Assembly: GCA_965215005.1 (NCBI GenBank)
Contig: CBDCCZ010000038.1
Span: 64,001-128,000 of the forward strand
Length of the DNA stretch: 64,000 bases
Direction of reading: 5' to 3'
Source of the DNA: Kofleriaceae bacterium
GTDB lineage: Bacteria > Myxococcota_A > Polyangia > Haliangiales > Haliangiaceae
Shown in pieces: positions 4,270-36,478 of the stretch (positions within the stretch are counted from its first letter, which is position 1; the number at the start of each line of letters is the position of its first letter). Position numbers and translations under genes: made by a program. The notes beneath the pieces are model-generated. The model worked only from the letters and a program-made list of their open reading frames with translations. It did no database searches and was not told where the DNA came from.

Positions 4270-4301
4270 CGCCAAGCACTGCGTGATATGCGCCTCGTTC
4301 C

Positions 4302-5063
4302 ATGATCGACCCGGCTGCGCCCGGTGGCGCTTCCCGTCCTTTGCCGCGCCACATCGGCATCATAATGGACGGCAACGGACGCTGGGCCGAGCGGCGCGGT
4401 CTACCCCGCATCGAGGGCCATCGCGTCGGCGCCGAGTCAGTCAAAGACATCGTCCGCGCGTGTCGGCAGCTCGGCGTCGAGACGCTCACGCTGTACGCGT
4501 TTTCGTCGCAGAACTGGGCCCGTCCTGCCGACGAGATTGCGGCGCTGATGCAGCTCTTGCGCGATTACCTCATCGAAGAGCGTGATGAGCTGATTGACAA
4601 CGAGATCCGCTTGCGCGCCATTGGCGACGTCGAGCGGTTGCCGCCGCTGGTCAAGGCACCGCTCGATGCGCTCGCTCGCGACACCGCGGGCAATGCGAAG
4701 ATGACGCTGGTGTTGGCACTTTCTTATGGTGGACGCGAGTCGATTGCGCGCGCGGCCGCGGCCGCCGCCGCCGCCGCGCGTGCCGGGCAGCTCGAGCCCG
4801 AGCAGCTCGATGCCAACGCTTTCGCCGCCTTTCTGCCGACCTTCGAGCTGCCGCCGCTGGATTTGCTCATTCGCACCAGCGGCGAGCAACGCATCTCCAA
4901 CTTCATGCTGTGGGAGCTGGCCTACGCCGAGCTCGTGTTCGTGGATACGATGTGGCCAGATTTTCGCCGGCAGCAGCTGTTTGCAGCGCTCGAGACCTTT
5001 GGAGTGCGCGAGCGCCGCTTTGGTCTCACCGGAACGCAGGTCGCAGGAAAGGATTTGCAGTAA
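4302..5063 (+). CDS. uppS: Undecaprenyl diphosphate synthase
   Basis: HIGIIMDGNGRWA, YAFSSQNW, LLIRTSGEQRISNFMLW motifs. Confidence 0.97.
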   Translation: MIDPAAPGGASRPLPRHIGIIMDGNGRWAERRGLPRIEGHRVGAESVKDIVRACRQLGVETLTLYAFSSQNWARPADEIAALMQLLRDYLIEERDELIDNEIRLRAIGDVERLPPLVKAPLDALARDTAGNAKMTLVLALSYGGRESIARAAAAAAAAARAGQLEPEQLDANAFAAFLPTFELPPLDLLIRTSGEQRISNFMLWELAYAELVFVDTMWPDFRRQQLFAALETFGVRERRFGLTGTQVAGKDLQ

Positions 5064-17827: not shown

Positions 17828-18634
17828 TCAGTCGGGAAGCACGATGCGAGGCCTGGTCGCGGGGCAAATGATGGGACCGCGGGCGACAAAGATGCCGGGT
17901 AGACAGCTACCAAGGGCGAAATCGTCGATGGTGCAAGCAATGCGCAGATGCAGGTGGTCGTTGTGCGGAGACGAGTCGCTCGGCTCGCGCATGACCGCGC
18001 TTGCATGAGCGAGCAGCTCCGGAGGCGCCCCAATTGCTTGGCCATACGCCAACAGCCAGCGCTCGATTCGGGTGGAAATGAAGATGTGGGTGACGATGGC
18101 ATCGTCATCGGTGAGCAGCGCGGCGATGAGCGCCCAGTTGCGCGGCAAGTCGAAGTACCGGGCGCTGATGCGGCGGCCGTAGGTGGTGCTGGTGGCCATG
18201 CCCGAGTCGCGATAGTTCGGAAATGCGGCATCGGGTACGAAAGGCTCACCGTGCTGATCGAGTGCATAGAAGTGCAGATCCGCGTCGCGTCCTGATTGAT
18301 GAGAGAGGTGACGCAGGGCGCGTCCGCCGCGAGCGTGGGCGAGGTCGGCGACTCCGAGAATGGCGCCTGGATGAGCGCCGGCGACGCGCGCGGCTGCGCG
18401 ACGGATGAGCCCTACTAGCTCATCGGTGCCGTAGTGCAGGCCGCGGCTACGCCACGGCTCCGGGATGATGTAGCCGACTCCCCGGGTAGGTAGTCGGGCG
18501 GCGCGGGCGAGGGCGCCGCGATTGACGGAGCCGCAGGAGACGCTGTCGCGAACCGGGCCAGACGCGCCGACATACACCGGGTCAACGATCACGGCGAGTA
18601 CGACAGCGAAGAGCGCCAAGTGCCAACCCCGCAC
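17828..18634 (-). CDS. Penicillin-insensitive murein endopeptidase (MepA family)
   Basis: YGTDEL, HLSHQSGRDAD, HNDHLHLRIAC motifs. Signal peptide. Confidence 0.88.
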   Translation of the reverse strand: MRGWHLALFAVVLAVIVDPVYVGASGPVRDSVSCGSVNRGALARAARLPTRGVGYIIPEPWRSRGLHYGTDELVGLIRRAAARVAGAHPGAILGVADLAHARGGRALRHLSHQSGRDADLHFYALDQHGEPFVPDAAFPNYRDSGMATSTTYGRRISARYFDLPRNWALIAALLTDDDAIVTHIFISTRIERWLLAYGQAIGAPPELLAHASAVMREPSDSSPHNDHLHLRIACTIDDFALGSCLPGIFVARGPIICPATRPRIVLPD

Positions 18635-18695: not shown

Positions 18696-20915
18696 TCATG
18701 CGGCGTCGGCGCAGGGGCGAGCGAGCTCGTTCTGGAGCCCCACGGCCAGCTCCGCTGCACTTGGACGACCGGCAGGATCCACCGCCAGGCAGCGGCTGAG
18801 CAGCTGCTGCGTCTCGCTGGTGAGCGCGGCTGGCAGAAGCGGGGGCTCGGCGAGCGTGCCGCGCTGGCTGCGAATCACCAGCGGCGGAGTCGCGAACGGA
18901 TAGCTGCCCGTGAGCAGCTGATACGCGATGAGCCCGAACGCATAGACGTCGCTGCCCGGCGCGACGTTGCGCCGGCCATCTGCGAGCTCCGGCGCCATGT
19001 AGCGCGGGGTACCCATGATCATTCCAGTTTGGGTAAGCGAGCTCGAGACATCGGCATTCGTCGGGGCTTGATAGCCGGCAGGCAAGGCGCGGGTATCCTC
19101 GGTCTCTGCCGGCAGCGGTAGCTCCTCGCTTGCTTCCAAGGAAGCTAGCTGCCAATCGCCGCCGGCGATGCCGAAGTCGGCAATCTTCACGATGTCGGTC
19201 TTCTCCGCGTGACGAACCAGCAGAATATTGGCCGGCTTGAGGTCACGGTGAACGATCCCAGCTCTGTGAATGGCAGCGAGACCATCGGCCAGCTGGGTGA
19301 GGATTTCCAGGCCCCAGGAGCGCTGCCCATAGCGGCTTTCCGAGCGGTCGAGCGAGCTGCCGTCGACGTACTCCATCACCAAGTACATAAAGCCCGATCC
19401 CGATAGCTCGACGTCGACCACCTGCACGATGTTGGGATGAAAAAGCTCACACGCCAGCTGCGCTTCCCGAGCAAAGCGCGCCGCCCGTTGAAAGTCGATC
19501 TGCGTGAGTACCTTCATCGCGAGGCGACGCTGGTCACTCAGCCGAACTGCCTCGTAGACTGCACCGGCCGCGCCAGCACCGATCGGGCGCACGATCCGAT
19601 AGCGGGCATCGACCACGTCATCGGCCGCAAGCGTAGGAGCGCGGCCGTGCAGCGCAAGCTTGGCAAGTCCGTCGGAGAGGTGGCGTGATCGTTGAGCGAT
19701 TTGCCGTTGCAGCTCGATGTTGAGCAGCTCGGTCTCGCGTTTGCCTGCTTGCAAGCTCACGACGCTGTCAGCCAGCTGCCCATTGAGGCGTTCTCCGTGC
19801 TCCAGTGATATGAACAGCGCCCGCGCCAGCCCTAGTAGCTGCGCAAAGGCGAACATCGCTAGACCCAATCCGGCGGGATGAACCCCCGAAAGAATCTCGG
19901 GAAATCCCAGCCACCAGGAGTTGTCGAGCGGTGTGGTGATCGTGAGGCTGATCCATCCGACTAAATGCACCATGACCTCGCCATTGCGCTCGCGCCGATA
20001 AAGCCTGGCGAGCAGCACGACTTGGTACACAAGTCCTATTAGCAAGGTGATAATGACCGTGCGAGCGGACCAGGTGACATTCTGAAAGTTTCCAGTGGTC
20101 GTCGTTGCAGATAGCAGGGCGACTGCAAAGAGTGTCCAAAGCCATTTGCCCATGGGACCGAGGTTGAAGTGCGCATGCGTGGCAGCAACTGCCAACATGA
20201 TCGCGCTCGTGAGACTCGTCATCACCAAGAAGACATCGAGTGAGCTCGTGAGGTGCTGAGTAACGCCGAGATCGAAGAATAAGTAGTAGATAGGCGCCGC
20301 GATGCACGTTGCAAATAGTGCATACGAGCGGCGTGGCCGGAGGAAGTACAGCACGACATAAACGAAGGCGATGGTGCCGAGCGAGCCTATACCGAGCCAT
20401 TGAACCGCATCCCTTGCGCGCTCCACCCCATACGCCAGAGAGGCTTCTCCAGCGCCGAGCGAGAGCCGAGGCGCGGTCCGCAGCCAGCTGCTTTGCGTCC
20501 ACCGATGCTGGATGACGAGCGACAGGTCCACCAGCCCGCTTGATGTAGAGGCGGCCGGGATGGTCCAAACGTGGGTTCCGGTGGAACGGTATCCGCTGGA
20601 GCTGCGATCGCCTCGGCCGAGATGTTGGTTGTTGGCGACGAGCTCGGTGGCGCCGCCAAAGTAGGGAATGGAGAGTGTGATGGGCTGCCCCGCCCACTTC
20701 GCCGGTAGCACCACACGGCGCTGCAGGATGTACTCGAGCGGCTTGGGCTCGAGAAAGCGGTCGAGCATGGTTGGCAGCTCGACCGTGACGTTGGCCGCCG
20801 GGAGGCGCCAGTCGCGCAACAGCAACGTGTCGGCACTGCTGCTACAGCCAGCGAGGTAAACGTAGAACAGCGCCGGGAGGCAGCGCTGGAAGAGGCGGTA
20901 GAGCCGCGAGGCCAT
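18696..20915 (-). CDS. Membrane Ser/Thr protein kinase with extracellular domain and about 7 TM helices
   Basis: IGAGAAGAVY, AMKV, HRDLKPAN, DFG, GTPRYMAPE, SDVYAFG. Multi-TM middle region and coiled coil. Confidence 0.92.
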   Translation of the reverse strand: MASRLYRLFQRCLPALFYVYLAGCSSSADTLLLRDWRLPAANVTVELPTMLDRFLEPKPLEYILQRRVVLPAKWAGQPITLSIPYFGGATELVANNQHLGRGDRSSSGYRSTGTHVWTIPAASTSSGLVDLSLVIQHRWTQSSWLRTAPRLSLGAGEASLAYGVERARDAVQWLGIGSLGTIAFVYVVLYFLRPRRSYALFATCIAAPIYYLFFDLGVTQHLTSSLDVFLVMTSLTSAIMLAVAATHAHFNLGPMGKWLWTLFAVALLSATTTTGNFQNVTWSARTVIITLLIGLVYQVVLLARLYRRERNGEVMVHLVGWISLTITTPLDNSWWLGFPEILSGVHPAGLGLAMFAFAQLLGLARALFISLEHGERLNGQLADSVVSLQAGKRETELLNIELQRQIAQRSRHLSDGLAKLALHGRAPTLAADDVVDARYRIVRPIGAGAAGAVYEAVRLSDQRRLAMKVLTQIDFQRAARFAREAQLACELFHPNIVQVVDVELSGSGFMYLVMEYVDGSSLDRSESRYGQRSWGLEILTQLADGLAAIHRAGIVHRDLKPANILLVRHAEKTDIVKIADFGIAGGDWQLASLEASEELPLPAETEDTRALPAGYQAPTNADVSSSLTQTGMIMGTPRYMAPELADGRRNVAPGSDVYAFGLIAYQLLTGSYPFATPPLVIRSQRGTLAEPPLLPAALTSETQQLLSRCLAVDPAGRPSAAELAVGLQNELARPCADAA

Positions 20916-21083
20916 CGCGGCTGCAATCGGTTGTCTTGGCAAAAACCTTTGGGGAGGCTCGTGCGCAAATGGCTATCACTGCGGAGTGCGCGCCCTCGCG
21001 GACAGCGCGGCGCGGCGCTGCCAGACCCCGGCCGGCCCGTCTTGCGTCGCTATCGAGCCAAGGCGACGGCCGGGATAGGCGGA

Positions 21084-24816: not shown

Positions 24817-26724
24817 ATGCGGTTTTGTCCCTTTTGCAGCGCCGAGAACGCCGACGAGGCTAGCCATTGCTCCTCGTGCGCCCGGCGTCTGCCGCCGCTG
24901 CCTCCGCGCCGAACCCCGGAGGCAACGGCTGGCGCGGCTCGAAGCGTTGCCGTGCCGCGGGCGTCACAGCCCGAGAGCGGGCCCAGTGATGGCCGGCCGC
25001 GGACGCTGCCGCCGTCGCCGTCACGTCGCGAGCGCGACCGCGCGATGGCGCCGGCCGGCCGCGATGGCGGCGGTGCGATGGTCGCGCCCAAACGGGTGGA
25101 GTTGCCGCTACGACCGGTGCGGCCGGTGACGCGCGAAGATGAGCCGTCGTGGCCTCTTGGCGACGGCGAGCCGCCGCGTCCATTGATGCCGCAAGAGTCG
25201 GCAGCGCCGATGCCGGCGCCGGCACCACTGGCCGCTTCGCCACTGGCCGCTTCGCCACTCGCCGATTCAATCGACGATTGGGACGATAGCGACGACGGTG
25301 CGACGACCGTGCAGGCGGCGCCGGCGATGCTCGAAGAGCTGTTGGCCGATGGCATCTCCGGGGCCGCGGTCGACGACGAAGAAACTCGCGTCGAGCACGT
25401 CGAGCGGCTCGAGGTCTTCGCCTCGGTCGAGCGGCCAGGTCCGCAGGTTGGCGCGGCGGCGCCCATCGATCGCAGCTGGGCGCGAAGTGAGACGCCCACG
25501 GTCCGCGAGCAGCTCTCGCTCAAAGCTGCTGCGCCTGCTGCTGCAAACGCTGCCGTGCCCGAGCCGCTGCCGCCCGCGCCGACTGGGCCGCGCAAGGCGA
25601 CGCCGCCGCCCACGCCGCCGCCGCGTCCCGAGCCGCCGCCCACCCGCATCGTGGCCGACATCCGCGAAGGCAGTGAGCCCTTCGAGCGACTCGAGGTCGC
25701 GCCGATTCCCGAAGTTCCCGAGCCGGGGTTCGGCAACGCCGTGGCGTACGCAATTCGCTTTACACGCGCGCGCTGGCAGCGGCGGGCCGCGATTGCCACG
25801 CTCGAAAAAGACATCACCACCGACACCGCTGCGCTCGATCAAGTGCTCGGCGCTCTCGGCAAAGAGGGACGGCGCGTTCGTACCGACAACCGCGCGTTGG
25901 TGGGCGAGCACCACGCGATTGACGAGGCCGAACGGCGCTGCGAGCGCATCGATCAAACCTGCGCCGAGCTCACCAGCCGACAAGCAGAAGAGAATACTCG
26001 CTTCGATGAGCTCGAAGCCGAACGCCTGGCCAAAGTCACCGAGGCCGAGGAGTCGCTGGAGAAAGCCGAGGCCGAGCTCGTGAGCTTAGAGGGCCAACGG
26101 CGCAGCCTGCGCGACAAGAAGAAGGCGATCGATCGCCGTCATAAAGCGCTGCTAAAGAGCGCCGATGACCGCGAAGATCAGGCCGGCAAAGCGGCTATGC
26201 CGGATGCGCGTGAGCAGCTGCGTCGGGCTGCGGAAGACTTGCGCGCTGATGCCGCTGCCATCGATCCGCAGCGGCTCGAGATCGATCGGCGGCTGCTAGC
26301 GCTCGATGCGCCCATGACCCGCGTTGCTGCGACTGTCGATACGCTCAAAGCCGAGCTCGAGTCGGCGCGGCGCAGTCTGCACGATGCACGCGAGGGGCAT
26401 CGGCACCGGTTGGCGGAGCTCGAAGCCGAGATGGGACGTCGCACTCGCGAGCTCGCGCAAGCGCAAGCCGAAATCGCGCGACGGCTGGTCACGCTCGGCA
26501 CGCTCATGAACCTACACCGCGTCGATGCGCCGGAGCTCGTGCAGCTATACGCGCGCATCGATCGCTTGCGCACCGCCATCGGAACGCGCACCCGCGAAAT
26601 CGATCGGCTCACGGCCGAGCGCGAGGCCTACGACCGCGGCTCGCTGGTCCGCGGTTATGCAGTGATGGGCGGATTGGCGATCGTGTTGTCGACGATCATC
26701 GTCATCATCCTGGCGCTCACGTAG
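24817..26724 (+). CDS. Zinc-ribbon, Pro-rich and coiled-coil protein with C-terminal TM anchor
   Basis: MRFCPFC..N....HCSSC, long disordered Pro-rich stretch, long coiled coil, terminal hydrophobic helix. Confidence 0.8.
   Translation: MRFCPFCSAENADEASHCSSCARRLPPLPPRRTPEATAGAARSVAVPRASQPESGPSDGRPRTLPPSPSRRERDRAMAPAGRDGGGAMVAPKRVELPLRPVRPVTREDEPSWPLGDGEPPRPLMPQESAAPMPAPAPLAASPLAASPLADSIDDWDDSDDGATTVQAAPAMLEELLADGISGAAVDDEETRVEHVERLEVFASVERPGPQVGAAAPIDRSWARSETPTVREQLSLKAAAPAAANAAVPEPLPPAPTGPRKATPPPTPPPRPEPPPTRIVADIREGSEPFERLEVAPIPEVPEPGFGNAVAYAIRFTRARWQRRAAIATLEKDITTDTAALDQVLGALGKEGRRVRTDNRALVGEHHAIDEAERRCERIDQTCAELTSRQAEENTRFDELEAERLAKVTEAEESLEKAEAELVSLEGQRRSLRDKKKAIDRRHKALLKSADDREDQAGKAAMPDAREQLRRAAEDLRADAAAIDPQRLEIDRRLLALDAPMTRVAATVDTLKAELESARRSLHDAREGHRHRLAELEAEMGRRTRELAQAQAEIARRLVTLGTLMNLHRVDAPELVQLYARIDRLRTAIGTRTREIDRLTAEREAYDRGSLVRGYAVMGGLAIVLSTIIVIILALT
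25225..25264 (+). repeat. 15-bp tandem repeat, about 2.7 copies (PLAAS)
   Basis: CCACTGGCCGCTTCG twice plus a partial copy. Confidence 0.8.
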
Positions 26725-26804: not shown

Positions 26805-27920
26805 GTGCCGAAGGTCCTGGTCTCCAATAACAGCGAGCTTCTCCGGCATCTTGCCGCGGCGCCGTTTCGTCACTTGGCGCTCGAGCTGGTCACTGCATCC
26901 AGCGGCGATGAAGCCCTTTATTTGCGCAATCGTGAGGCGCCAGCGCTGGCGATCCTCGATGCTGAGCTTGCGGGCGTGTCTGGCTATCAGGTTGCGCAGC
27001 AGATCAAAGAAGAGTCTGACTGCCGCGTGGTGCTCGTGCTCGGCAAGCGCATCAACGCCGAACAGATGCGCCGCGTGAGCAAGTCGGGGTGCGATGAGGT
27101 CTTGATCGCGCCAATGAGCGCCGATGAGCTCTATGACGTCGTCGCGATTCAGCTCGGGCTGCCGCGGCGCGGAACCGAACGCTTTAGCGTCCAGCTGACT
27201 GTCCGAGAGGGCGATGATCGCCGGCCCGTCGATGGTCGAGTTACCAATCTCTCCGTGGATGGCGCGCGGCTGGTGGTGGCCGAGCCACTGGTCGAAGGCA
27301 CCCGCCTCGAGCTCATCATCTCCGAGGCCGACGCCAAACCGATCACGGTGGCCGCGCGGGTGGTTTGGGCGCAGCCCCACGAGCGCAAGACGGTCGTGGG
27401 CGCCGCCTTCGATGAGCTCGAGCCGCGGATGCAATCGGTGTTGGCGCGGCTCACGCAATGGGACTTGGTCAAAGAGACCGAGCGAACCCGAATCGTGCTC
27501 AAGGGCGACTTCACCGAAGCCACTGCCTTCGATGATCTGTTGCCGGTGCTGGTGGGGCGCATCGACTTCGATCTGTCGCAGGTGCGCTATCTCAATTCGC
27601 TGGGTGTACGGGCCTGGTGCGAGTTGATTCGCGCGGCGCCCATTCACGGCTACGAATTCCACGCGTGCTCGATTCCGTTCGTGTTGCAGGCTTCGCTGGT
27701 GCCCGATGTGCTGGGGCGCGGCTCGGTGACGTCGTTCTTTGCGCCGTACGCGTGCGAAGTGTGCGAGCACCAGGAAGAGCGGCTGCTGCAAGCAGCGACG
27801 ATCTTGGCTGCCGAAGACATGGAACCACCACCGGGCGTGTGTCCCGAATGTGGCGGCCAGACTTCGCTCGACGACATCCCTGAGCGCTACTTGGCGTTCC
27901 TCCGCCAAGACGACGAGTAA
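26805..27920 (+). CDS. Atypical receiver-PilZ-STAS-like-zinc ribbon signalling protein
   Basis: REC-like N-terminus (AILDAEL..SGYQVA), PilZ RRGTER/NLSVDG, STAS-like FDLSQVRYLNSLGVRAW, CEVC...CPEC. Confidence 0.8.
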   Translation: MPKVLVSNNSELLRHLAAAPFRHLALELVTASSGDEALYLRNREAPALAILDAELAGVSGYQVAQQIKEESDCRVVLVLGKRINAEQMRRVSKSGCDEVLIAPMSADELYDVVAIQLGLPRRGTERFSVQLTVREGDDRRPVDGRVTNLSVDGARLVVAEPLVEGTRLELIISEADAKPITVAARVVWAQPHERKTVVGAAFDELEPRMQSVLARLTQWDLVKETERTRIVLKGDFTEATAFDDLLPVLVGRIDFDLSQVRYLNSLGVRAWCELIRAAPIHGYEFHACSIPFVLQASLVPDVLGRGSVTSFFAPYACEVCEHQEERLLQAATILAAEDMEPPPGVCPECGGQTSLDDIPERYLAFLRQDDE

Positions 27921-27938
27921 TCGCCGTCGCTACTATCG

Positions 27939-28751
27939 CTACAGTATTCCGCGCCGCTCTTGATAGAGGCGCAGGATATCAGCCGCGGTTTCTTCGACGG
28001 CCTTGTTGGTGACATCGATGACCGGCCACCTGGGGTGTGCTCGAAAGATGCCGCGCGAGTAGTTGATCTCATTCTCGATGTGCGCACGAGCGCCATAGCT
28101 CGAGTCGCTCGGCATTCCCAAGTGCTTGAGACGTGCTTGGCGGATGCGCATCAGCGTATCGGCGCTGATGATAAGTCCATAGACCTTGTCATCCTCGACC
28201 TCGCCTAGCTCCTTGGGAGGCTCGATCCCGAGCACGAGCGGCACGTTGGCCACCTTGAGCCCGCGCTGCGCCAGGTAGGTGGACAGCGGTGTTTTCGAGG
28301 TCCGCGAGATGCCGACCAGCACCAGATCCGCTTTTGGCAAATTGCGCGGCTCGGCGCCATCGTCATTCTTGACTGCGAACTCGACCGCTTCCATGCGGCG
28401 GAAGTAATCATCGCTGAGGCGATGGAGCAGGCCAGGAACTCCCGATGGAGTTGCTTGCAAGAAACCGGCGAGCTTGCCAATCAGCGCGCCGATCAGGTCG
28501 ATCGCTTCGACGTTGTGGCGCTCGATCTGATCGAGTAGCAGCTCACGAGCATCCTGATTGACCATGGTGAAGACGACCAACGCGCGCAGCTCGGCGGCGC
28601 GTTCGATGATTCGCTCAACCTCCGCCTCGAGGCGCACGCGTGAATAGGTTCGGATGCTCACCGGCGTGTCGCTGAACTGCAACGTGGCGGCGCGAACCAT
28701 GCGTTCGGCGGTTTCACCGGTAGCGTCGCTGATGACTATCACCGTCTTCAT
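27939..28751 (-). CDS. ppsR: PEP synthetase/pyruvate phosphate dikinase regulatory kinase-pyrophosphorylase (DUF299)
   Basis: ISDATGETA, YFRRMEAVEFAVKNDDG, GISRTSKTPLS.YLA, KVANVPL, KAVEETA. Confidence 0.95.
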   Translation of the reverse strand: MKTVIVISDATGETAERMVRAATLQFSDTPVSIRTYSRVRLEAEVERIIERAAELRALVVFTMVNQDARELLLDQIERHNVEAIDLIGALIGKLAGFLQATPSGVPGLLHRLSDDYFRRMEAVEFAVKNDDGAEPRNLPKADLVLVGISRTSKTPLSTYLAQRGLKVANVPLVLGIEPPKELGEVEDDKVYGLIISADTLMRIRQARLKHLGMPSDSSYGARAHIENEINYSRGIFRAHPRWPVIDVTNKAVEETAADILRLYQERRGIL

Positions 28752-28764
28752 GACGCGCTCGAGT

Positions 28765-30075
28765 CTATCTCAGAACCGGCAGCCGCGCCTGCTTACGGCT
28801 CGCACCGCCGGCATCTGCAGGCTGCTCACGCTGCCAATCGATCACCCTTGGGCATTCGGGATCGGGGGCGTGCTCATCGCCGAGCACGTGCGCCGAGACC
28901 ACCTTGCAGCCGCCACGACAAAGATCGTGATAGGAGCAGCTTGCACAGGGCTCGGCTGCATCGTGCCAGCGGCGAAACGCGCCGAAGGCTTCTTGCCGCC
29001 CCCAATAGTCGCGCAGCCGATCGACCGTGGGCCGCTCACGCGGCGCATGCGCAAAGCTGCACGCCGTGACCAGCCCGGAGGCTTTGGCGCCGATCAAAAA
29101 GTCGCCGCCGGTGCAGCCATACACCGCCAACTTGGCGAGCAGGGCGCGGTCCGGCTGGTGGTGAGCGAGCATCGGCGTGTACGAACAATCGACGCGGGTT
29201 CGAATGCGATGATGGCGTGCCGCGGCCAGCACGGTGGGCAAAAACGCGCGATGTTGGGCATCGCTGCAGGTGTGCTCGACGAATGCTCGAGCGCCGCGTC
29301 CCGCCGGCTTGAAGCGCAGTAGCTCGATTTCGCTGAGGCGCTTCTTTCGCGCATAGGCAAACAGCGCATCGAGCTCGCCAAAGTTATGGCGGGTCACGAC
29401 CACGTTGATACCGATCTCGCGCTTGACTGCTCGCAATGCGGTGATCGCTTTATCGGCGCGATCGAACCCGTCAAAACCGCGAACCGCCGCGTAGGTTGGG
29501 CCGAGTCCGTCGAGCGAGACGTTGATCTGTCCGAACAGCTCGGCGATGGGAAGCAATCGCTGCAGGCCGCTCAACCCGCTGGTCGTGAGGTTGGGAACCA
29601 GCCCGCGACTGCGCGCGTGCGCGGCTACTTCACCGAGCCACGGCAGGTCGGCGCTTTCACCGCCACCGAGCGCGAGATGAAAGACTCCCATCGCTGCCAG
29701 CTCATCGATCGCACGCTTCCAATCGCTAGCGCCCCACTCGTTTTTGCTGCCGCCTGGCGTCGCTCCGGTGTAGCAGCCTTGGCAGCCGGCATCGCAGCGA
29801 TTGGTGAGCTGAAGGTGCGCTTCGAGCGGTGCCGCCAACACCGCGCGCCCCACCGCGCCGTCATCAGCGGGATCGTTCCACAGCGAATCGCCCGGGCTAG
29901 GCCGTAATCCGAGCGAGCGCGCGTACGTGCGATCGACGAACACCAAGGCACGCGGCCATGCCAGCTGAACGATGGCGCCAAACGGCTCGATCCGCGCTCG
30001 TCGCGCGCCGTCGCCGGCAAGCCGCCGCGCTTGATCAATCCAGCGCGTGGCGCGACGTTTGATCCGCTCGAGCAT
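28765..30075 (-). CDS. Radical SAM protein with SPASM domain (PqqE/MftC-like peptide maturase type)
   Basis: CDAGCQGC, GGGE, SLDG, SPASM cysteines CTGG...ACS and CASC....LCRGGC...DPEC. Confidence 0.92.
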   Translation of the reverse strand: MLERIKRRATRWIDQARRLAGDGARRARIEPFGAIVQLAWPRALVFVDRTYARSLGLRPSPGDSLWNDPADDGAVGRAVLAAPLEAHLQLTNRCDAGCQGCYTGATPGGSKNEWGASDWKRAIDELAAMGVFHLALGGGESADLPWLGEVAAHARSRGLVPNLTTSGLSGLQRLLPIAELFGQINVSLDGLGPTYAAVRGFDGFDRADKAITALRAVKREIGINVVVTRHNFGELDALFAYARKKRLSEIELLRFKPAGRGARAFVEHTCSDAQHRAFLPTVLAAARHHRIRTRVDCSYTPMLAHHQPDRALLAKLAVYGCTGGDFLIGAKASGLVTACSFAHAPRERPTVDRLRDYWGRQEAFGAFRRWHDAAEPCASCSYHDLCRGGCKVVSAHVLGDEHAPDPECPRVIDWQREQPADAGGASRKQARLPVLR

Positions 30076-30256
30076 CGATGGAGGCCTCGAGAGCAGGCTT
30101 TCGCCAGCGCACCAGCGCCGCGATGATCGGCGTTGCCATCGACAGCGTCGCTGCGCCAAAGAGGAGAAACGTGACGTCCACGCCCAGACTCGATGAGTTG
30201 GGGTTTAGCCCCCACTTCACCGCGAGAATGCGACCGCGTGGTTTGCGTCCAAACAT
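30035..30256 (-). CDS. Small membrane-anchored peptide (73 aa) with GLNPNSSS motif, candidate radical SAM substrate
   Basis: Starts 4 nt after the TPR gene stop and overlaps the radical SAM start, filling the gap in the operon. Basic N-terminus, NPNSSS, then a TM helix. Confidence 0.7.
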   Translation of the reverse strand: MFGRKPRGRILAVKWGLNPNSSSLGVDVTFLLFGAATLSMATPIIAALVRWRKPALEASIDARADQTSRHALD

Positions 30257-30260
30257 GAGT

Positions 30261-31427
30261 TCAAGCGGGTCCGAAGCGAACGGTATCGAGAACTAGATCC
30301 ACTAGCTGCGCGCGATACAGCGCAATATAGCAGAGGGCGAGCACCGCGACGAACGCCGTGACGATGTGTGCCAGCGACCGCGCTCGCCGCGGCGGTTTCC
30401 CGGCGGCCAACGCTGCGCCGCTGAGCCAGGTGATCGCCAGCCCGCCGACCGCGATGGTGGCAACGGCGGGTCCGGCGGCGAAGTAGTCACTGTACGCCGC
30501 GAACATGAGTAGCGCGAGCCCTGGCGCGAGATAGACGACCTCGATGGGAGGGACTACCAGCGCTCGCAACGACTGTTGCAGCGTGCGCGTGGTTGCGGCC
30601 AGCGAAGCCAGAAAACCAGCCGCGGTGAGAATGAGAAGCGCGAGCGCTGCTACGTACAGCCGATGACGCCGGCGCTCGCTTTGAGCGTGACTGAGCGCAT
30701 CGTGCTGAGTTTGGCGTCGCGACGGCTCCGTGCCCACCGGCAAGGCTCGATATTCGGCTATTGCAGTGTCGAAGTCGCCAAGCGCCAACGCTGCGTCGGC
30801 GCCACCTAGCTGCGCTTCGTAGCGCTCTTTGGAATCGGGCCAGCGCCGCACCACCTCGCGGAACCAACGCCGCGCCAGCGCCGGCTGCGAACGGCGCGTG
30901 TGAAGGTTGGCCAACCACAGCGCCACCGCCGGTAATCCCGACCAGGTGCTGTACTCGGCGATCAGCGCTTCGGCCATACGCTGCGACTGCACCTCGCTGC
31001 GCTCGCCATAGCCCATGCGCAGCTCGTTCCAGCGAGCGATCGCGGCGGTGTCCTCGCCAAGCGGACCGAGCTGCGCGCGCAGCGCCTCGGCTCTCTGCTG
31101 GGCTGCCAAGGCCACTCGACTGCGAGGAAAACGCGCGAGCAGCTGCTCATAGAGCGCCAGCCCCTGCGTTGGCTCACCGAGCCGCTCGACACGCAACTCT
31201 GCGGCGCTAAACAGCGCATCTGCCGCCAGCGCCGGCTGCGCGAGCGCATCCTGAGCGACCGCTTCGTATGCCTCGGTTGCCTCGCGCCAGCGAGCTGCCG
31301 CCATTGCCTCGGCTGCGGCGGCGAACCGTTCTTGCACCTGGGCCTTGCTGCTTGGCACGTCGGCGCGCGCGGATGGCTGCAGCGCCATTAGCGCCATCAG
31401 CACCATCATCGCTGCGATCGCTTGCAT
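30261..31427 (-). CDS. Exported TPR protein with about 4 C-terminal TM helices
   Basis: Signal peptide ..ARA, TPR-like helices (YEQLLARFPRS, VVRRWPDS), hydrophobic C-terminus. Confidence 0.8.
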   Translation of the reverse strand: MQAIAAMMVLMALMALQPSARADVPSSKAQVQERFAAAAEAMAAARWREATEAYEAVAQDALAQPALAADALFSAAELRVERLGEPTQGLALYEQLLARFPRSRVALAAQQRAEALRAQLGPLGEDTAAIARWNELRMGYGERSEVQSQRMAEALIAEYSTWSGLPAVALWLANLHTRRSQPALARRWFREVVRRWPDSKERYEAQLGGADAALALGDFDTAIAEYRALPVGTEPSRRQTQHDALSHAQSERRRHRLYVAALALLILTAAGFLASLAATTRTLQQSLRALVVPPIEVVYLAPGLALLMFAAYSDYFAAGPAVATIAVGGLAITWLSGAALAAGKPPRRARSLAHIVTAFVAVLALCYIALYRAQLVDLVLDTVRFGPA

Positions 31428-31435
31428 GGCGCTCG

Positions 31436-32841
<1,406 letters not shown>

Positions 32842-32845
<4 letters not shown>

Positions 32846-33810
32846 CGGTGCTCCTGATCCTTGGTGCGTGAGCGGGTCGTCAAGTAGATCGCGATGAGCA
32901 GTAGGAGCCCACCCACGACATACATCCACGACTGGTCGGTCGACCGCGCGGCCGGCTGTTCGACCCGCATGATCACGCCACCCTCGGGCGGTGCCCCGAG
33001 ACTCGGCGCCAACGGCGCGCGGGTGGCGGCTGAGTCGTGGGCTGCTGGCGCGGGCTCATCGGCAGCCAGATCTCTGGCTTCTGGCAGGGTGCCGAGTGGC
33101 CGGGGCTCAGCGGCAGCCGTGAGCTCTAATGAATTGGCTATAGTTTCACAGCGAGCCGTAGCGCCCTCCATCTCAGCCTGTGCGAAGCATTCCACGGTGG
33201 CTTGCGCGACATTGCCATCGGAGCGGGCCCAGACCACGGTGACTACCGCGGCGTTGGTGTGGTTGGCCACGTGACGCCAGCGCAGATTCGCGCGCGCGAC
33301 CCCATCGGTGACAGACTCGTTCCACGCTAATAGCCGCGCGTCATCGGCGGCGAGCGCTGCGGCTTCGGGAATCCGTCGCACACGTTCGATGGCGGCCCGA
33401 GCGGCGACCTCCGCTGAGGCGGGCGGCTCATCGCTCTCGAGCCACCAGACCCACACCACCACGCCATCGGCGGACGACGTATAGGTGGCCGCGTCGCCGC
33501 TCGCCGCAACCTCGCCAAACACGCGTCGGTCTGCGAGCTCGGCAGCCAGCGCTTTGCCCTGGCCTGCGTCGACGGCGAATTGCGGTGGCACGGCCACACT
33601 CATCCACGGCGGCGGCCCTGGCACCGCCGCGGGCTCGTCAGTCACCTGCGCCGAAGCGACGCCAGTGGCTGAAAGCATCCATCCGATAACGCACGCCGCT
33701 GCGGCGCGCTGCGCCCATGCGATTGCCTTTCCGCACTGCCGCACCACGGCTGTGCTTTCGAGCGAGATCGCACTTCGCCGCGGAGTTGATGCAGCTCGTT
33801 CACCGGTCAT
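32842..33810 (-). CDS. Exported hypothetical protein with C-terminal TM anchor
   Basis: Signal peptide ..ASA, a Cys pair, C-terminal WMYVVGGLLLLIAIYLTTRSR. ATGA overlap with the next gene. Confidence 0.75.
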
Positions 33811-33825
33811 GGGATCCTTGCCAGG

Positions 33826-34416
33826 TCACGTCGGCCCGCGGAACTGCGCTAGCAGGTGTTTACACTGCTGCTTGCAGCGCTCGGGCTCTCGGTCGTTGTA
33901 GAAGCACGCGGCCATCGCTGCAACCACTAGCGAGGGCTCAGGCGCGGTCGCAATCGTGTGAACAGTTCCCTGCATGGTAGGCGCAACGAAAGCAAAGCTC
34001 GAGTGCGAGGTGCCGCCATTGGTGCGCGGCTCGCGCCAGGCGCTTATGTCGAGGCCGGCTCCGGCGGCCGCGTCGCGAAGCTGCTCGTGCAGTGCGATCG
34101 TGTCTATCTTGCGAGCTGCCAGCTCGCCGGTGAGGAGGTAGCAACCATCGGCGGGATCACCCCAGGCATGGCTGGTTATCGCCATATTCTTGCGCAGCTT
34201 TGGCAGCGCTGCCTCGCTCGCTTTCCCTGCGACGACGGGGAGCGGGACAAATGTTGGCGGCAACTCGAGGCCGTAGCGCGCCGGCGTCATGGGCTCGTCG
34301 GCAAGGGCGCCGGTCACCATCCACGCGAGCAGCGAAACTGCCGCGGCCGCTAGCGCTGCGAAGAATCGCCGTCTCGGTCTTTTCGCGGCGATATCGATTA
34401 TGGCAGGACGATCCAT
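33826..34416 (-). CDS. Exported hypothetical protein
   Basis: RRRFFAALAAAAVSLLAW signal, four Cys. Overlaps the astA 3' end. Confidence 0.7.
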   Translation of the reverse strand: MDRPAIIDIAAKRPRRRFFAALAAAAVSLLAWMVTGALADEPMTPARYGLELPPTFVPLPVVAGKASEAALPKLRKNMAITSHAWGDPADGCYLLTGELAARKIDTIALHEQLRDAAAGAGLDISAWREPRTNGGTSHSSFAFVAPTMQGTVHTIATAPEPSLVVAAMAACFYNDREPERCKQQCKHLLAQFRGPT

Positions 34417-35423
34417 ACGCGCTCGCCTTCGCCGACGCCGAGGCGGTCGAGCGCCGCTCCGGGAACGCCCACGGATGCGTCGTCGGAACCGGGAATAACG
34501 CGGGTTCCCACGGCCACGAAGCTGGGCTCTGCCGCGCTGCTGGTGGCGAGAATCGCCCACGGACGCGACTCATCGGCGGTGTCGATACGGCGCGCGCGCA
34601 CCTGCCGGGAATCGCGCACCAAGGTGATCGAGTCGGTTTCGGCGATGAAGTGCGGTCCGCCGTCGAACGGGTCGATCTGGTTGGCGAACTGAAATCCGAT
34701 GCGCCGCAACATCTTCTCGACGCCTTTGGTATCGGGGCCGACGTGACCGATCACCGCTTGCACTTCTTTGGGCAGTAGCGACGTATAGATGACAGTGTGC
34801 GGAAACAAGGCGCGAATGAACTCTTTATTGTGTTTCGATAGAATGTCGGCTTCTTGATACGTGAGACCGGTGAAGCGCTTTCCAAGCTGTTCCCACAGCA
34901 CACTCGTGCCATTGTCCTCGAGTGGTGGCAACAACTCGGATACTACCTTGTCGCGGAACACCGGCCGGTGCATCTTGATGAACAAGAAGCGCATGTATGA
35001 AAGCAGCTTCCCCAGCTGCTGCTTGTGGCGACGGTATTGCGGCAGCAGGATCAGCCCGCCGATTTCCGAAGGGCCATCGTAGTTGTAGCCGATGCGCAGC
35101 GTTTGATGGACGAAGTATCGATCGAGGGTTTCCGAGTAGCGCTCGTCGTTCTCGACGCTGAAGAACACGTGCGGCGCGCGGCGAGTTCCGTGCTGCGCGT
35201 GAATCATGGAGGTACCGACGATGGTGTCGCGCTCCGCATCGACGAGCACGAACAGGTATTCGCGCTCAGACTCGGGGCAGCTGCCGTCGAAAGAGCGAGA
35301 CGACAAATCGAGAATCGACTCGAGATGCTCGCGATTGGCGGGCAAGTTTACCGAGTCGAGATGCTCGGCAACGGCAAAGATTGCGTCGAGGTCGGAGCGA
35401 AAGCTTTGACGGATGTAAAACAT
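34398..35423 (-). CDS. astA: Arginine N-succinyltransferase
   Basis: YLFVL.D..IVGTS, SEIGGL.L, GKLLS..RFLF, VIG.V, GF.....DPFDGGP. Confidence 0.9.
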   Translation of the reverse strand: MFYIRQSFRSDLDAIFAVAEHLDSVNLPANREHLESILDLSSRSFDGSCPESEREYLFVLVDAERDTIVGTSMIHAQHGTRRAPHVFFSVENDERYSETLDRYFVHQTLRIGYNYDGPSEIGGLILLPQYRRHKQQLGKLLSYMRFLFIKMHRPVFRDKVVSELLPPLEDNGTSVLWEQLGKRFTGLTYQEADILSKHNKEFIRALFPHTVIYTSLLPKEVQAVIGHVGPDTKGVEKMLRRIGFQFANQIDPFDGGPHFIAETDSITLVRDSRQVRARRIDTADESRPWAILATSSAAEPSFVAVGTRVIPGSDDASVGVPGAALDRLGVGEGERVWIVLP

Positions 35424-36262
35424 CACGGCACCAGTTCGGTGAGGGCGGTGACCACGCCGTAACGAACTTCGCTGGCTGCGCGAGTCACCCAATCAGATAG
35501 CTGTGGATTTAGCATCTCAGCGACGACCTCGGAGCCTGACACGATGCGAATGGTGCGCTCGCCGCACGCGATCCGGCGATGGTTCTCGGTATCGATCCAA
35601 TCGAGGATCTCGGGCAGGGCGCGGGTGGTGACGGATTGGTTGTCATGCATGAGCACCACCGCACGGCCCTCGAGATGGCGCAGTTTACCGATAATCGCCT
35701 CGGCGACTCGCTGGCTGTCCTGATGCTTCCACTCCTGCGGATCGATATCCCAGTGCAGATGAGCGATGCCGGAGCTCTCGAGGAGCGCTACAAGGCTGTC
35801 GCACTTGGCTCCGTAGGGGGAGCGAAAGAGTACGATGGGCATTCCGGTGAGCTCACTAAAAATGGCGGCGTTGTCGAGGACCTCACTTTGCATGGTGGGG
35901 CCATCCACGCGGCACAAGTTGGCGTGCGAGAGGGTGTGGTTGGCCACGATGTGACCATCGCGCAGCGCCCGTTGCACCAATGCGCGGCGCGCCTCGGTGC
36001 CGGCGCTTGCATGCTCGCTGCGGTCGCGCACGCGGCGACCGACCCAGAAGAAGATGGCGCGAATTCCCCGCGCCTCGAGCACATCGAGAACCTCCGCGGT
36101 GTAGCGAGGGTGAGGACCGTCGTCGAAGGTGAGGACGACTTCAGGACCGCCGGTCGCTGAGGGGCCCGCTGCCGGTTTAGGCCACTTTCCCGCGCGCGCT
36201 AGCTCAGCCGGAGCCGCCAGCAGCGCTGCGGAAAGCAGTACGATAGAGATCGCTTTGGACAT
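35423..36262 (-). CDS. Polysaccharide deacetylase (CE4/NodB), exported
   Basis: LTFDDGP, NHTLSH, FRSPYG, DPQEW, VLMHD. Confidence 0.93.
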
Positions 36263-36478
36263 GGAAACGCGTCGTCGGTTGTATCCCGGAACGATCGCGC
36301 AGACCAAGTACTAGCCCCGTCGCGGGGCGGAGGCAGCAGCGGCAAGCGCCCTGGTACGGCCGCGGCAAAAGCGGCAAATCCCGTAACTAGCGCGAATTCG
36401 CTCCGAGAACGGCAAGCCGCCCTTATGCGGCCGCAGACACCAGCGCTGCGGCCGCAGCTCGACAACGACTTTCGCGGC

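Follow-up and report, generated by a model that had tools for sequence, protein, structure and literature searches.

A 64,000-nucleotide stretch of contig CBDCCZ010000038.1 from a Kofleriaceae bacterium (hereafter the window, part of a 6.2-Mb assembly) carries a gene for a radical S-adenosylmethionine (SAM)/SPASM enzyme and, directly upstream, a 73-codon open reading frame (ORF) encoding a small membrane protein. Together they represent a real, conserved and unnamed enzyme-substrate module, in which the role of the peptide as substrate is predicted. A direct partnership between enzyme and peptide is highly probable, and covalent modification of the N-[S/C]-S motif in the peptide core is likely. 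By analogy with anSMEs (anaerobic sulfatase-maturating enzymes), the product may be formylglycine, formed by oxidation of a single residue, Ser21, a reading to which we assign a probability of about 0.45.

The ORF occupies positions 30256–30035 of the minus strand. The initial annotation had placed it in the gap between a tetratricopeptide repeat (TPR) gene and the radical SAM gene, and the coordinates bear this out: it starts 4 nt past the stop of the TPR gene and overlaps the ATG of the enzyme gene by 41 nt. The conserved peptide that the same annotation had proposed to look for beside homologous radical SAM genes was found directly upstream of enzyme relatives in 23 of the 25 loci returned. 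Across 44 codons in 23 loci, pairwise differences at codon positions 1, 2 and 3 numbered 2571, 1051 and 5475, respectively, while the segment NPNSSSLG accumulated 713 synonymous and no non-synonymous pairwise differences. Because of this codon-position bias and the complete absence of non-synonymous change in NPNSSSLG, the 73-codon ORF is, on the evidence of its codons, a real gene and not a chance reading frame. The enzyme gene ends at 28765, and its probable start, ATG 30075, yields a protein of 436 aa, the length called for it in the protein collection. An alternative start, TTG 30159, is less likely because the reading would cross the helix region of the peptide in another frame, and because relatives align from approximately residue 17–25 of the 436-aa form. 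Two opposite-strand ORFs (30078–30296 and 28654–29322) had no match in a Pfam scan and were treated as shadows. A −10-like hexamer lies approximately 6–8 nt ahead of the peptide start codon in 13 of 23 loci, the window locus being one of those without it; such proximity to the start suggests a leaderless transcript. A promoter scan of positions 27700–35000 returned no sites, and terminator-like sequences numbered 4 against 5.0 expected.

The 73-aa peptide begins with a basic N-terminus, followed by a leader strand (R9–K14, RILAVK; 30215–30232), a G-x-N-P-N-S-S-S-L-G core (G16–G25, including N20, S21 and S22; 30182–30211), a hydrophobic helix (V28–V49; 30110–30175), a basic stop and a variable tail. 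The codon of S21, the proposed target, lies at 30194–30196. The helix is a putative membrane anchor judged by hydropathy: the best 19-residue value was 1.9–2.4 in all 23 peptides, and the flanking residues are basic on both sides (median +3/+3). Asn20 is invariant in 45/45 aligned rows. A profile of the peptide recovered 1853 proteins among 3595 candidates, as well as 306 clusters at 50% identity, none of them named, and a scan of genomes gave 176 matches of which 149 were confirmed. The 80 loci kept from these confirmed matches were analysed for genomic context, and their record titles name Myxococcota, Nitrospirota, Geobacter/Oryzomonas, Acidobacteriota, Planctomycetota, Raymondbacteria and Cytophagia. 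The peptide family had no match in Pfam, NCBIfam, PHROGs or PADLOC. When 21 peptides were compared with NCBIfam no match went beyond E 0.03, and one of the 21 matched GVDTG_CTERM or Synergist_CTERM (E 0.03 and 0.06). An ESM Atlas search returned unnamed clusters only (0.78–0.79), which are a lead at most, a profile search for a solved relative gave no match, and none of 55 pattern matches to the membrane peptide in viral contigs was confirmed. We also considered the peptide as a C-terminal sorting signal of the PEP-CTERM type on a large exported protein; this was rejected, as the longer forms are enzyme fusions with the enzyme behind the helix. A few of the long profile hits looked like chimeric or frameshifted gene calls.

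Several peptide genes are arranged differently from that in the window. Genome G002 (L327:2842-3267 and 4273-4569) has extra peptide copies, one with Glu at the otherwise invariant G16 and one truncated. Three loci (L108, L119 and L130) hold two peptide genes each in the order TPR-peptide-TlpA-phosphatase-peptide-enzyme, which suggests two cargo variants for one enzyme. Some loci have the peptide but not the enzyme: in ten (L058, L066, L071, L074, L076, L078, L090, L092, L110 and L122) it follows a TRAP-transporter DctP gene, and in six (L088, L089, L093, L098, L099 and L101) it precedes a MoxR gene.

The enzyme (28765–30075, minus strand) belongs to no named family, and its close named homologs are from Haliangium ochraceum and Kofleriaceae. 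The window genome holds one such enzyme and one such peptide. The enzyme is single copy in 29 of 33 sampled genomes of the host family and order, and reaches several phyla. It scores 39.6 bits against the radical SAM model PF04055 (cut-off 29.5) and carries the CxxxCxxC cluster motif (C94/C98/C101; 29773–29796). Its SPASM region (28852–29187), which scores 31.6 bits against the seven-Cys motif TIGR04085 (cut-off 27), contains eight cysteines (C297, C321, C339, C377, C380, C386, C390 and C408) that are invariant in 48/48 enzymes of the family clade whose peptides carry Ser at position 21 (the Ser clade; 37–63% identity). The full SPASM Cys set reported in the initial annotation is thus present, and on sequence grounds both auxiliary clusters would be fully ligated by enzyme cysteines. 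Also invariant in the 48 enzymes are E85, H87, Q183, N185, N224, E251, K256, R260, D296, S298 and S340. The structure model of the enzyme (predicted local distance difference test, pLDDT, 87.9) has three strands (residues 27–48) and one helix ahead of the barrel. This segment, residues 27–54 (29914–29997), resembles the recognition element (RRE) of RiPPs (peptides that are ribosomally synthesised and then modified post-translationally) in truncated form. The RIEPFGAIV segment that led the initial annotation to propose an RRE-like N-terminus is present, and the domain superposes on the N-termini of SuiB and SkfB, but the RRE is truncated, and eight N-terminal enzyme pieces had no NCBIfam match at E up to 10. 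Its R-x-E-x-F-G motif weakly matches MftB (5–7 bits, the top 2 of 28 test sequences).

Three lines of evidence tie the enzyme to the peptide, and for these reasons the coupling asserted in the initial annotation is supported: identical presence and absence in 41 genomes, natural fusions, and a model of the complex. Among the 41 related genomes, enzyme and peptide are present in the same 31, and the same 10, several of which are incomplete, gave neither in these searches; in two genomes (G008 and G022) the peptide lies on a different contig from the enzyme. In a sample of 301 genomes from the phylum, all 27 peptide-bearing genomes hold the enzyme at no less than 353 bits. These counts carry no statistical test, because related genomes are not independent. 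Of the 80 loci, 49 contain the enzyme, which in 42 is directly downstream of the peptide. Independent gene calls made 23 of 64 longer peptide hits peptide-enzyme fusions, many of which start within a few residues of the tag; none of the 64 joined the peptide to a non-enzyme domain, which is weak evidence, as no more than 8000 candidates had been scored.

The complex was predicted with ESMFold2, with three 4Fe-4S clusters and SAM included. It scored 0.92 (runs 0.92, 0.93 and 0.91), against 0.02 for the best of three controls; for reference, 116 of 157 solved complexes reached the score mark, as did 2 of 215 mismatched pairs, although these figures apply only approximately here. Agreement of contacts between runs is at least 84%, with partner pLDDT of at least 68. 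In the model, RILAVK pairs antiparallel with strand 43–48 of the RRE-like sheet, and these are the contacts of least error. The peptide core contacts the barrel through an interface that includes the invariant residues E85, H87, Q183, N185, N224, E251, K256, D296–S298 and C339–F341, and the hydrophobic helix lies with one face against enzyme residues 279–287 and 303–320. The enzyme is thus predicted to bind the peptide through the leader strand; the model supports binding and names no attacked atom.

Evidence on the residue involved comes from a sister clade. A further 31 genomes held enzymes of 218–425 bits and no match to the narrow peptide profile; we examined 30 of these, leaving out G278, where the gene lies at a contig start. 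A related peptide, G-x-x-x-N-C-S-[SAT]-x-G followed by a hydrophobic helix, was found at 28 of these 30 mid-scoring enzyme loci, in frame at the enzyme N-terminus in 19 and as a separate gene in 9. Cys replaces S21 in all 28 peptides, and the Asn is kept in 27. No peptide was seen at 14 weaker enzyme loci (≤201 bits). Position 21 is Ser or Cys only in all aligned rows, while N20 and S22 are fixed across both clades. The enzymes of the Cys clade retain most of the residues that are invariant in the Ser clade, yet E251 and S298, found together in 12/12 Ser-clade enzymes, give way to Gln or His at 251 and Ala at 298 in 12/12 Cys-clade enzymes.

By the criteria tested the enzyme is not a member of MftC, PqqE, anSME or Avap1/Avap2. 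The best structural match is SuiB (5V1S/5V1T; Z 27.9, root-mean-square deviation (rmsd) 3.7 Å, 372 residues aligned), which covers residues 17–410 of the model, including the N-terminal domain. SkfB (6EFN; Z 26.0, rmsd 3.5 Å, 309 aligned) also matches with its N-terminal domain, from residue 25. As in these enzymes, the leader is predicted to add as a strand, and, as in RRE-dependent RiPP systems, a short precursor gene stands beside the enzyme, in the same 23 of 25 and 42 of 80 loci as given above. Unlike SuiB and SkfB, with which it shares 17–18% identity, the enzyme has an RRE-like domain with only one helix, the core of its predicted substrate is placed after the leader and before a membrane helix, it is accompanied by neither protease nor exporter, and natural fusions occur. 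Machinery for leader removal or export was absent from the recurrent neighbours of the 80 loci, unlinked genes being outside the scan. The anSMEs (AtsB and anSMEcpe; PDB 4K36-4K39) share the radical SAM/SPASM fold (Z 23.2, rmsd 3.5 Å, 315 aligned) from residue 82 only, have eight Cys for two auxiliary clusters, and act on Ser or Cys. Their sulfatase substrates carry the motif [C/S]xPxR, and their catalytic base is an Asp. The anSMEs have no RRE and act on a large sulfatase, whereas here the partner is a membrane peptide of 50–110 aa with N-[S/C]-S-[STAG], and no sulfatase was found among the scanned neighbours; identity is 15–17%, and Ser340 stands in place of the catalytic Asp. MftC gives the best named NCBIfam score (TIGR03962, 112.5 bits), below the cut-off of 265 and on a separate tree branch, and MftA, which ends in IDGMCGVY, shares nothing with the peptide. 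PqqE (TIGR02109, 86.9 bits) falls below its cut-off of 381, and no pqq genes occur in the scanned region of the window; in both the mycofactocin and PQQ systems the barrel residues differ from those of the enzyme, and no cofactor-pathway genes are found here.

The Avap1/Avap2 pair of KpAvs2 is alike in that a radical SAM enzyme stands beside a small protein of unassigned role, and the accessible part of its description gives neither protein a function (PMC11564622). DUF6375 (PF19902) had no match in the window genome and occurs in 1 of 301 genomes. The enzyme at a DUF6375 locus has a similar N-terminal beta segment, but the DUF6375 protein starts without N-S-S, and the enzyme falls outside the family clade on a long branch. 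At that locus (L238:1489-2966) the DUF6375 protein begins M-K-I-W...H-G-S-E-H-S, and the pair is perhaps a parallel tag system with another core. PADLOC holds no model for the peptide and gave only weak viperin matches for the enzyme. No paper on the peptide-enzyme system was found in the literature searched, subscription journals and bioRxiv supplements being outside its coverage. In the supplementary file of PMC10288494 there was no match for NPNSSS or Haliangium, and of its 13 NSSS/NCSS rows the 4 examined were all unrelated.

The initial annotation had mentioned proteins with an N-terminal NSSS motif beside radical SAM genes, and such proteins were indeed found in viral contigs and on plasmids. 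Scanning viral contigs for the motif yielded 102 stretches with 209 distinct proteins that contain G/D-F-V-S/T-N-S-S, in 192 of them five residues after Met. Among 80 phage tag loci with full flanks, overlapping and near-duplicate loci being kept in the count, 60 have at least two tagged genes and 37 at least four; a radical SAM gene lies within 3 kb in 28, including 22 of the 37. The phage tag proteins correspond to phrog_7397 and the phage enzyme to phrog_7293, both annotated as of unknown function. Ser follows the Asn in 193/193 phage tags, a figure biased by the search pattern. The register [RK]xGxxxN[SC]S[ST] is common to membrane peptides, phage tags and plasmid tags. A bacterial version of the tag stands behind a SMEK-domain gene on Rhodobacter and Agrobacterium plasmids. 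There (L239:2562-7017 and L244:566-5002) a SMEK-domain gene, an NSSS-tagged small protein and a radical SAM gene follow one another in a layout that recalls Avs2-Avap2-Avap1 and may represent a defence operon.

The tag enzymes share PN.T, K256, D296, C321 and C339-S-F with the family. In contrast to the membrane peptides, the phage systems have soluble and diverse cargo in arrays of up to nine; the barrel of the tag enzymes has Asp for H87, His for N224 and Ala for Q183/N185, and the phage enzymes are without the second auxiliary cluster motif. A 40-row tree joins the tag enzymes to the Ser and Cys clades (support 90/85, unstarred, on a long branch) and a quick 62-row tree groups them alike; the alternative of placing them with MftC was not rejected (approximately unbiased test, p-AU 0.081). 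Profile scores do not identify the tag enzymes as the nearest relatives: the family profile gives MftC 163–194 bits, the Rhodobacter tag enzyme 126 and the phage enzymes 45–80, and the phage profile scores the window enzyme at 36.6, like MftC (30–38). Their kinship to the peptide-enzyme family, which is probable, therefore rests on the tree and the shared residues. Phage phiEap-3 (L240:2905-4074) is a counter-example to the link between tag and enzyme, in that it has a phage-type enzyme yet the tag is not at the start of any of the eight neighbours that were translated, out of 22 in the stretch. The phage-type enzyme is found in 173 cultured phage records, mostly of Klebsiella, Enterobacter and Cronobacter phages. 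On the widest reading, [RK]xGxxxN[SC]S[ST] would be a portable tag on which one unnamed radical SAM clade installs formylglycine. Its bearers would be the membrane micro-protein, whether free or fused, in the service of phosphatase/TPR complexes of myxobacteria, Nitrospirota and other groups, SMEK-adjacent small proteins, and arrays of as many as nine unrelated phage proteins; we hold this joint reading only tentatively, and it is clearly more doubtful than formylglycine in the membrane peptide.

By analogy, the system would work like an RRE-guided radical SAM maturase and, in its chemistry, like an anSME. The truncated RRE domain is modelled as binding the RILAVK strand of the peptide, its likely substrate, by adding it to the three-stranded sheet; the N-P-N-S-S-S core would then enter the barrel, with one helix face on the enzyme. 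The 5′-deoxyadenosyl radical would abstract a C-beta hydrogen from Ser21 (or the Cys), E251 (Gln/His in the Cys clade) would help deprotonation, and the two fully ligated auxiliary clusters would take up an electron as in anSMEs, leaving formylglycine. Oxidation of this kind is proposed because position 21 is only Ser or Cys in the aligned rows, because the enzyme has eight auxiliary-cluster Cys, and because the acidic residue is present only where the substrate is Ser. The anSMEs are described as converting Ser or Cys to formylglycine by C-beta hydrogen abstraction, with two auxiliary clusters (PMC10114670, PMC10288494). More speculatively, the modified peptide would be neither cut nor secreted; it would stay in the inner membrane with the TPR protein and serve exported purple-acid-phosphatase-type enzymes. 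The fusions imply that the C-terminal side of the helix must be cytoplasmic, and the tag would therefore either be modified before insertion and then displayed outside, or sit on a helix that does not cross the membrane. The interpretation in the initial annotation, of a modification system whose substrate stays membrane-bound, is supported overall; it did not include the fusions, the sister clade with its Ser/Cys swap, or the TPR/phosphatase context.

A number of observations weigh against this account. Within the fetched DNA, 31 of the 80 loci are without a family enzyme. The predicted complex resembles the solved RRE-leader complexes of SuiB and CteB, and part of its score may be likeness, because such complexes have already been solved, although the peptide itself gave no match to a solved relative. 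The residue after auxiliary Cys C339 is Ser340 and not Asp, the structural match to anSME (Z 23.2) ranks below those to SuiB, SkfB and PqqE (27.9, 26.0 and 24.1), and the anSME sequence score is far below those of MftC and PqqE. The phosphatase link rests largely on one cassette of Nitrospirota/Geobacter type, and in the window the pair has no phosphatase gene next to it. Finally, the exchange of Ser for Cys and the covarying enzyme residues amount to a single evolutionary event that separates two clades, and a heteroatom cross-link would explain them equally well. In such a cross-link, which is unlikely yet remains the main rival to formylglycine, hydrogen would be abstracted from Asn20 (or another core residue) and the residue joined to the Ser21 oxygen or Cys sulfur in a small (thio)ether ring. 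It would account for the conservation of Asn20, which matches that of the neighbouring Ser/Cys (27/28 in the Cys clade, 45/45 rows) and which simple oxidation does not need, and the enzyme fold is closest to the RiPP cross-linkers SuiB and SkfB. Thioether-forming enzymes have an open auxiliary-cluster site, whereas the present enzyme supplies all eight auxiliary-cluster Cys and leaves none open, and we know of no enzymes that make either an ether or a thioether on orthologous substrates. A precedent exists in TqqB, which joins adjacent Thr and Gln according to PMC10114670.

Other radical chemistry, such as cleavage of the backbone or of C-alpha/C-beta, epimerisation or dehydration, might instead leave the membrane helix, or the tagged phage domains, with a newly freed reactive N-terminus. 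A core set between a leader strand and unrelated cargo, in both membrane peptides and phage proteins, is the layout of a removable leader, and no protease is conserved nearby; with the Ser/Cys restriction better explained by heteroatom chemistry, and no residue pattern found that is specific to a known family of cleaving or epimerising enzymes, we consider this distinctly less probable than the cross-link. It is somewhat less probable still that the peptide tethers the enzyme to the membrane, or regulates it as a pseudo-substrate, and so docks it at the TPR complex, the true substrate being another protein or a small molecule. If the tag is the substrate, an enzyme fused to it at the N-terminus would turn over only once, and the helix has basic residues to either side (median +3/+3), which permits both ends to be cytoplasmic, but a tether has no need of an invariant N-[S/C]-S core, the complex model puts that core against invariant barrel residues, and no second motif-bearing protein was found in the window genome, nor among 20 neighbouring phosphatases and 33 TPR proteins. 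Least probable, and very improbable in our estimation, is a precursor of a released small cofactor, like PqqA and MftA. The top named families are MftC and PqqE (112.5 and 86.9 bits) and the N-terminal motif of the enzyme resembles RPEPFGAL of MftB, but both scores are far below the cut-offs of 265 and 381, MftC and PqqE branch apart from the family in the tree, the 80 loci have no recurrent peptidase, oxidase or tailoring gene, and PqqA and MftA have no membrane helix.

On the minus strand of the window the gene order is an NtrX-like regulator, the TPR gene (31427–30261), the 73-codon ORF (30256–30035), the radical SAM gene (30075–28765) and ppsR (28751–27939). The TPR gene encodes a signal-like N-terminus, a TPR solenoid and four C-terminal hydrophobic helices (TPR-4TM), and is directly upstream of the peptide in 33 of the 80 loci. 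With no invariant residue in 32 rows it was rejected as an enzyme; a fold search gave TPR matches only (best Z 15.0, rmsd 2.5 Å, 119 aligned), with the membrane part barely tested, and the protein is likely a scaffold. A purple-acid-phosphatase-type gene occurs in 25 of the 80 loci and in 8 of the 30 Cys-clade loci. HupE/UreJ and TonB-receptor genes are further members of the Nitrospirota-type cassettes, a TlpA-like thioredoxin is one of another type, and a His-rich four-helix protein lies near the enzyme in 14 of the 30 Cys-clade loci. From the neighbourhood alone we would guess that the system matures or regulates exported metallophosphoesterases. The absence of an adjacent protease or exporter, remarked on in the initial annotation, holds for the window, where family scans found none adjoining the pair, and no peptidase or exporter recurs among the neighbour clusters of the 80 loci (70 largest clusters, 21 representatives scanned). 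Elsewhere in the window genome, a second TPR-4TM paralog (G000:C3:369683-373157; L324:683-4157), with no peptide or enzyme beside it, comes directly downstream of a gene of the purple-acid-phosphatase type, which is among five strong phosphatase matches in the 6.2 Mb. A His-rich four-helix membrane protein with no Pfam family, possibly a haem or metal binder (G000:C19:75099-75713; L325:3099-3713), belongs to the family found beside the enzyme in those 14 Cys-clade loci and stands directly behind a gene pair which we take from sequence to be ftsA/ftsZ-like.

Several other genes of the window were noted. The ppsR gene (a PEP synthase/PPDK regulatory kinase-pyrophosphorylase; phosphoenolpyruvate, PEP; pyruvate phosphate dikinase, PPDK) lies 13 nt behind the enzyme gene (27939–28751, minus strand) and is not a recurrent neighbour among the 80 loci. 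Upstream, positions 31436–36307 (minus strand) hold the NtrX-like sigma-54 regulator, two unnamed exported-looking proteins, an AstA-family succinyltransferase and a polysaccharide deacetylase; the AstA/NtrX-TPR gene order is seen again in several Polyangia loci. On the plus strand are a receiver-PilZ protein with a Cys-rich, zinc-ribbon-like C-terminal part (26805–27920) and a protein with a zinc ribbon, a Pro-rich linker, a long coiled coil and a C-terminal membrane helix (24817–26724), relatives of which lie near the enzyme in four Polyangia loci. Further off, a Ser/Thr kinase fused to a 7TM-DISM membrane region (18696–20942, minus strand) adjoins a Peptidase_M74 gene (17828–18634).

In the libraries searched there is no family model and no paper for either the enzyme or its peptide partner. 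A substrate that is anchored in the membrane, and whose core is placed between its leader and the anchor, is unusual for radical SAM peptide systems, as are enzymes that carry their own putative substrate as an N-terminal fusion. The candidate chemistry has been narrowed to one residue and two distinguishable mass shifts; since the Ser/Cys swap points to one residue and one mass shift, the chemistry is testable by a single co-expression. If the portable formylglycine tag were true, it would constitute a widespread, unrecognised post-translational modification of proteins and a natural aldehyde tag outside the sulfatases. Should the N-terminal tags of phages and bacteria prove to be one and the same handle, this would account for many orphan radical SAM genes, and the tag would offer a short, genetically encoded site for protein labelling.

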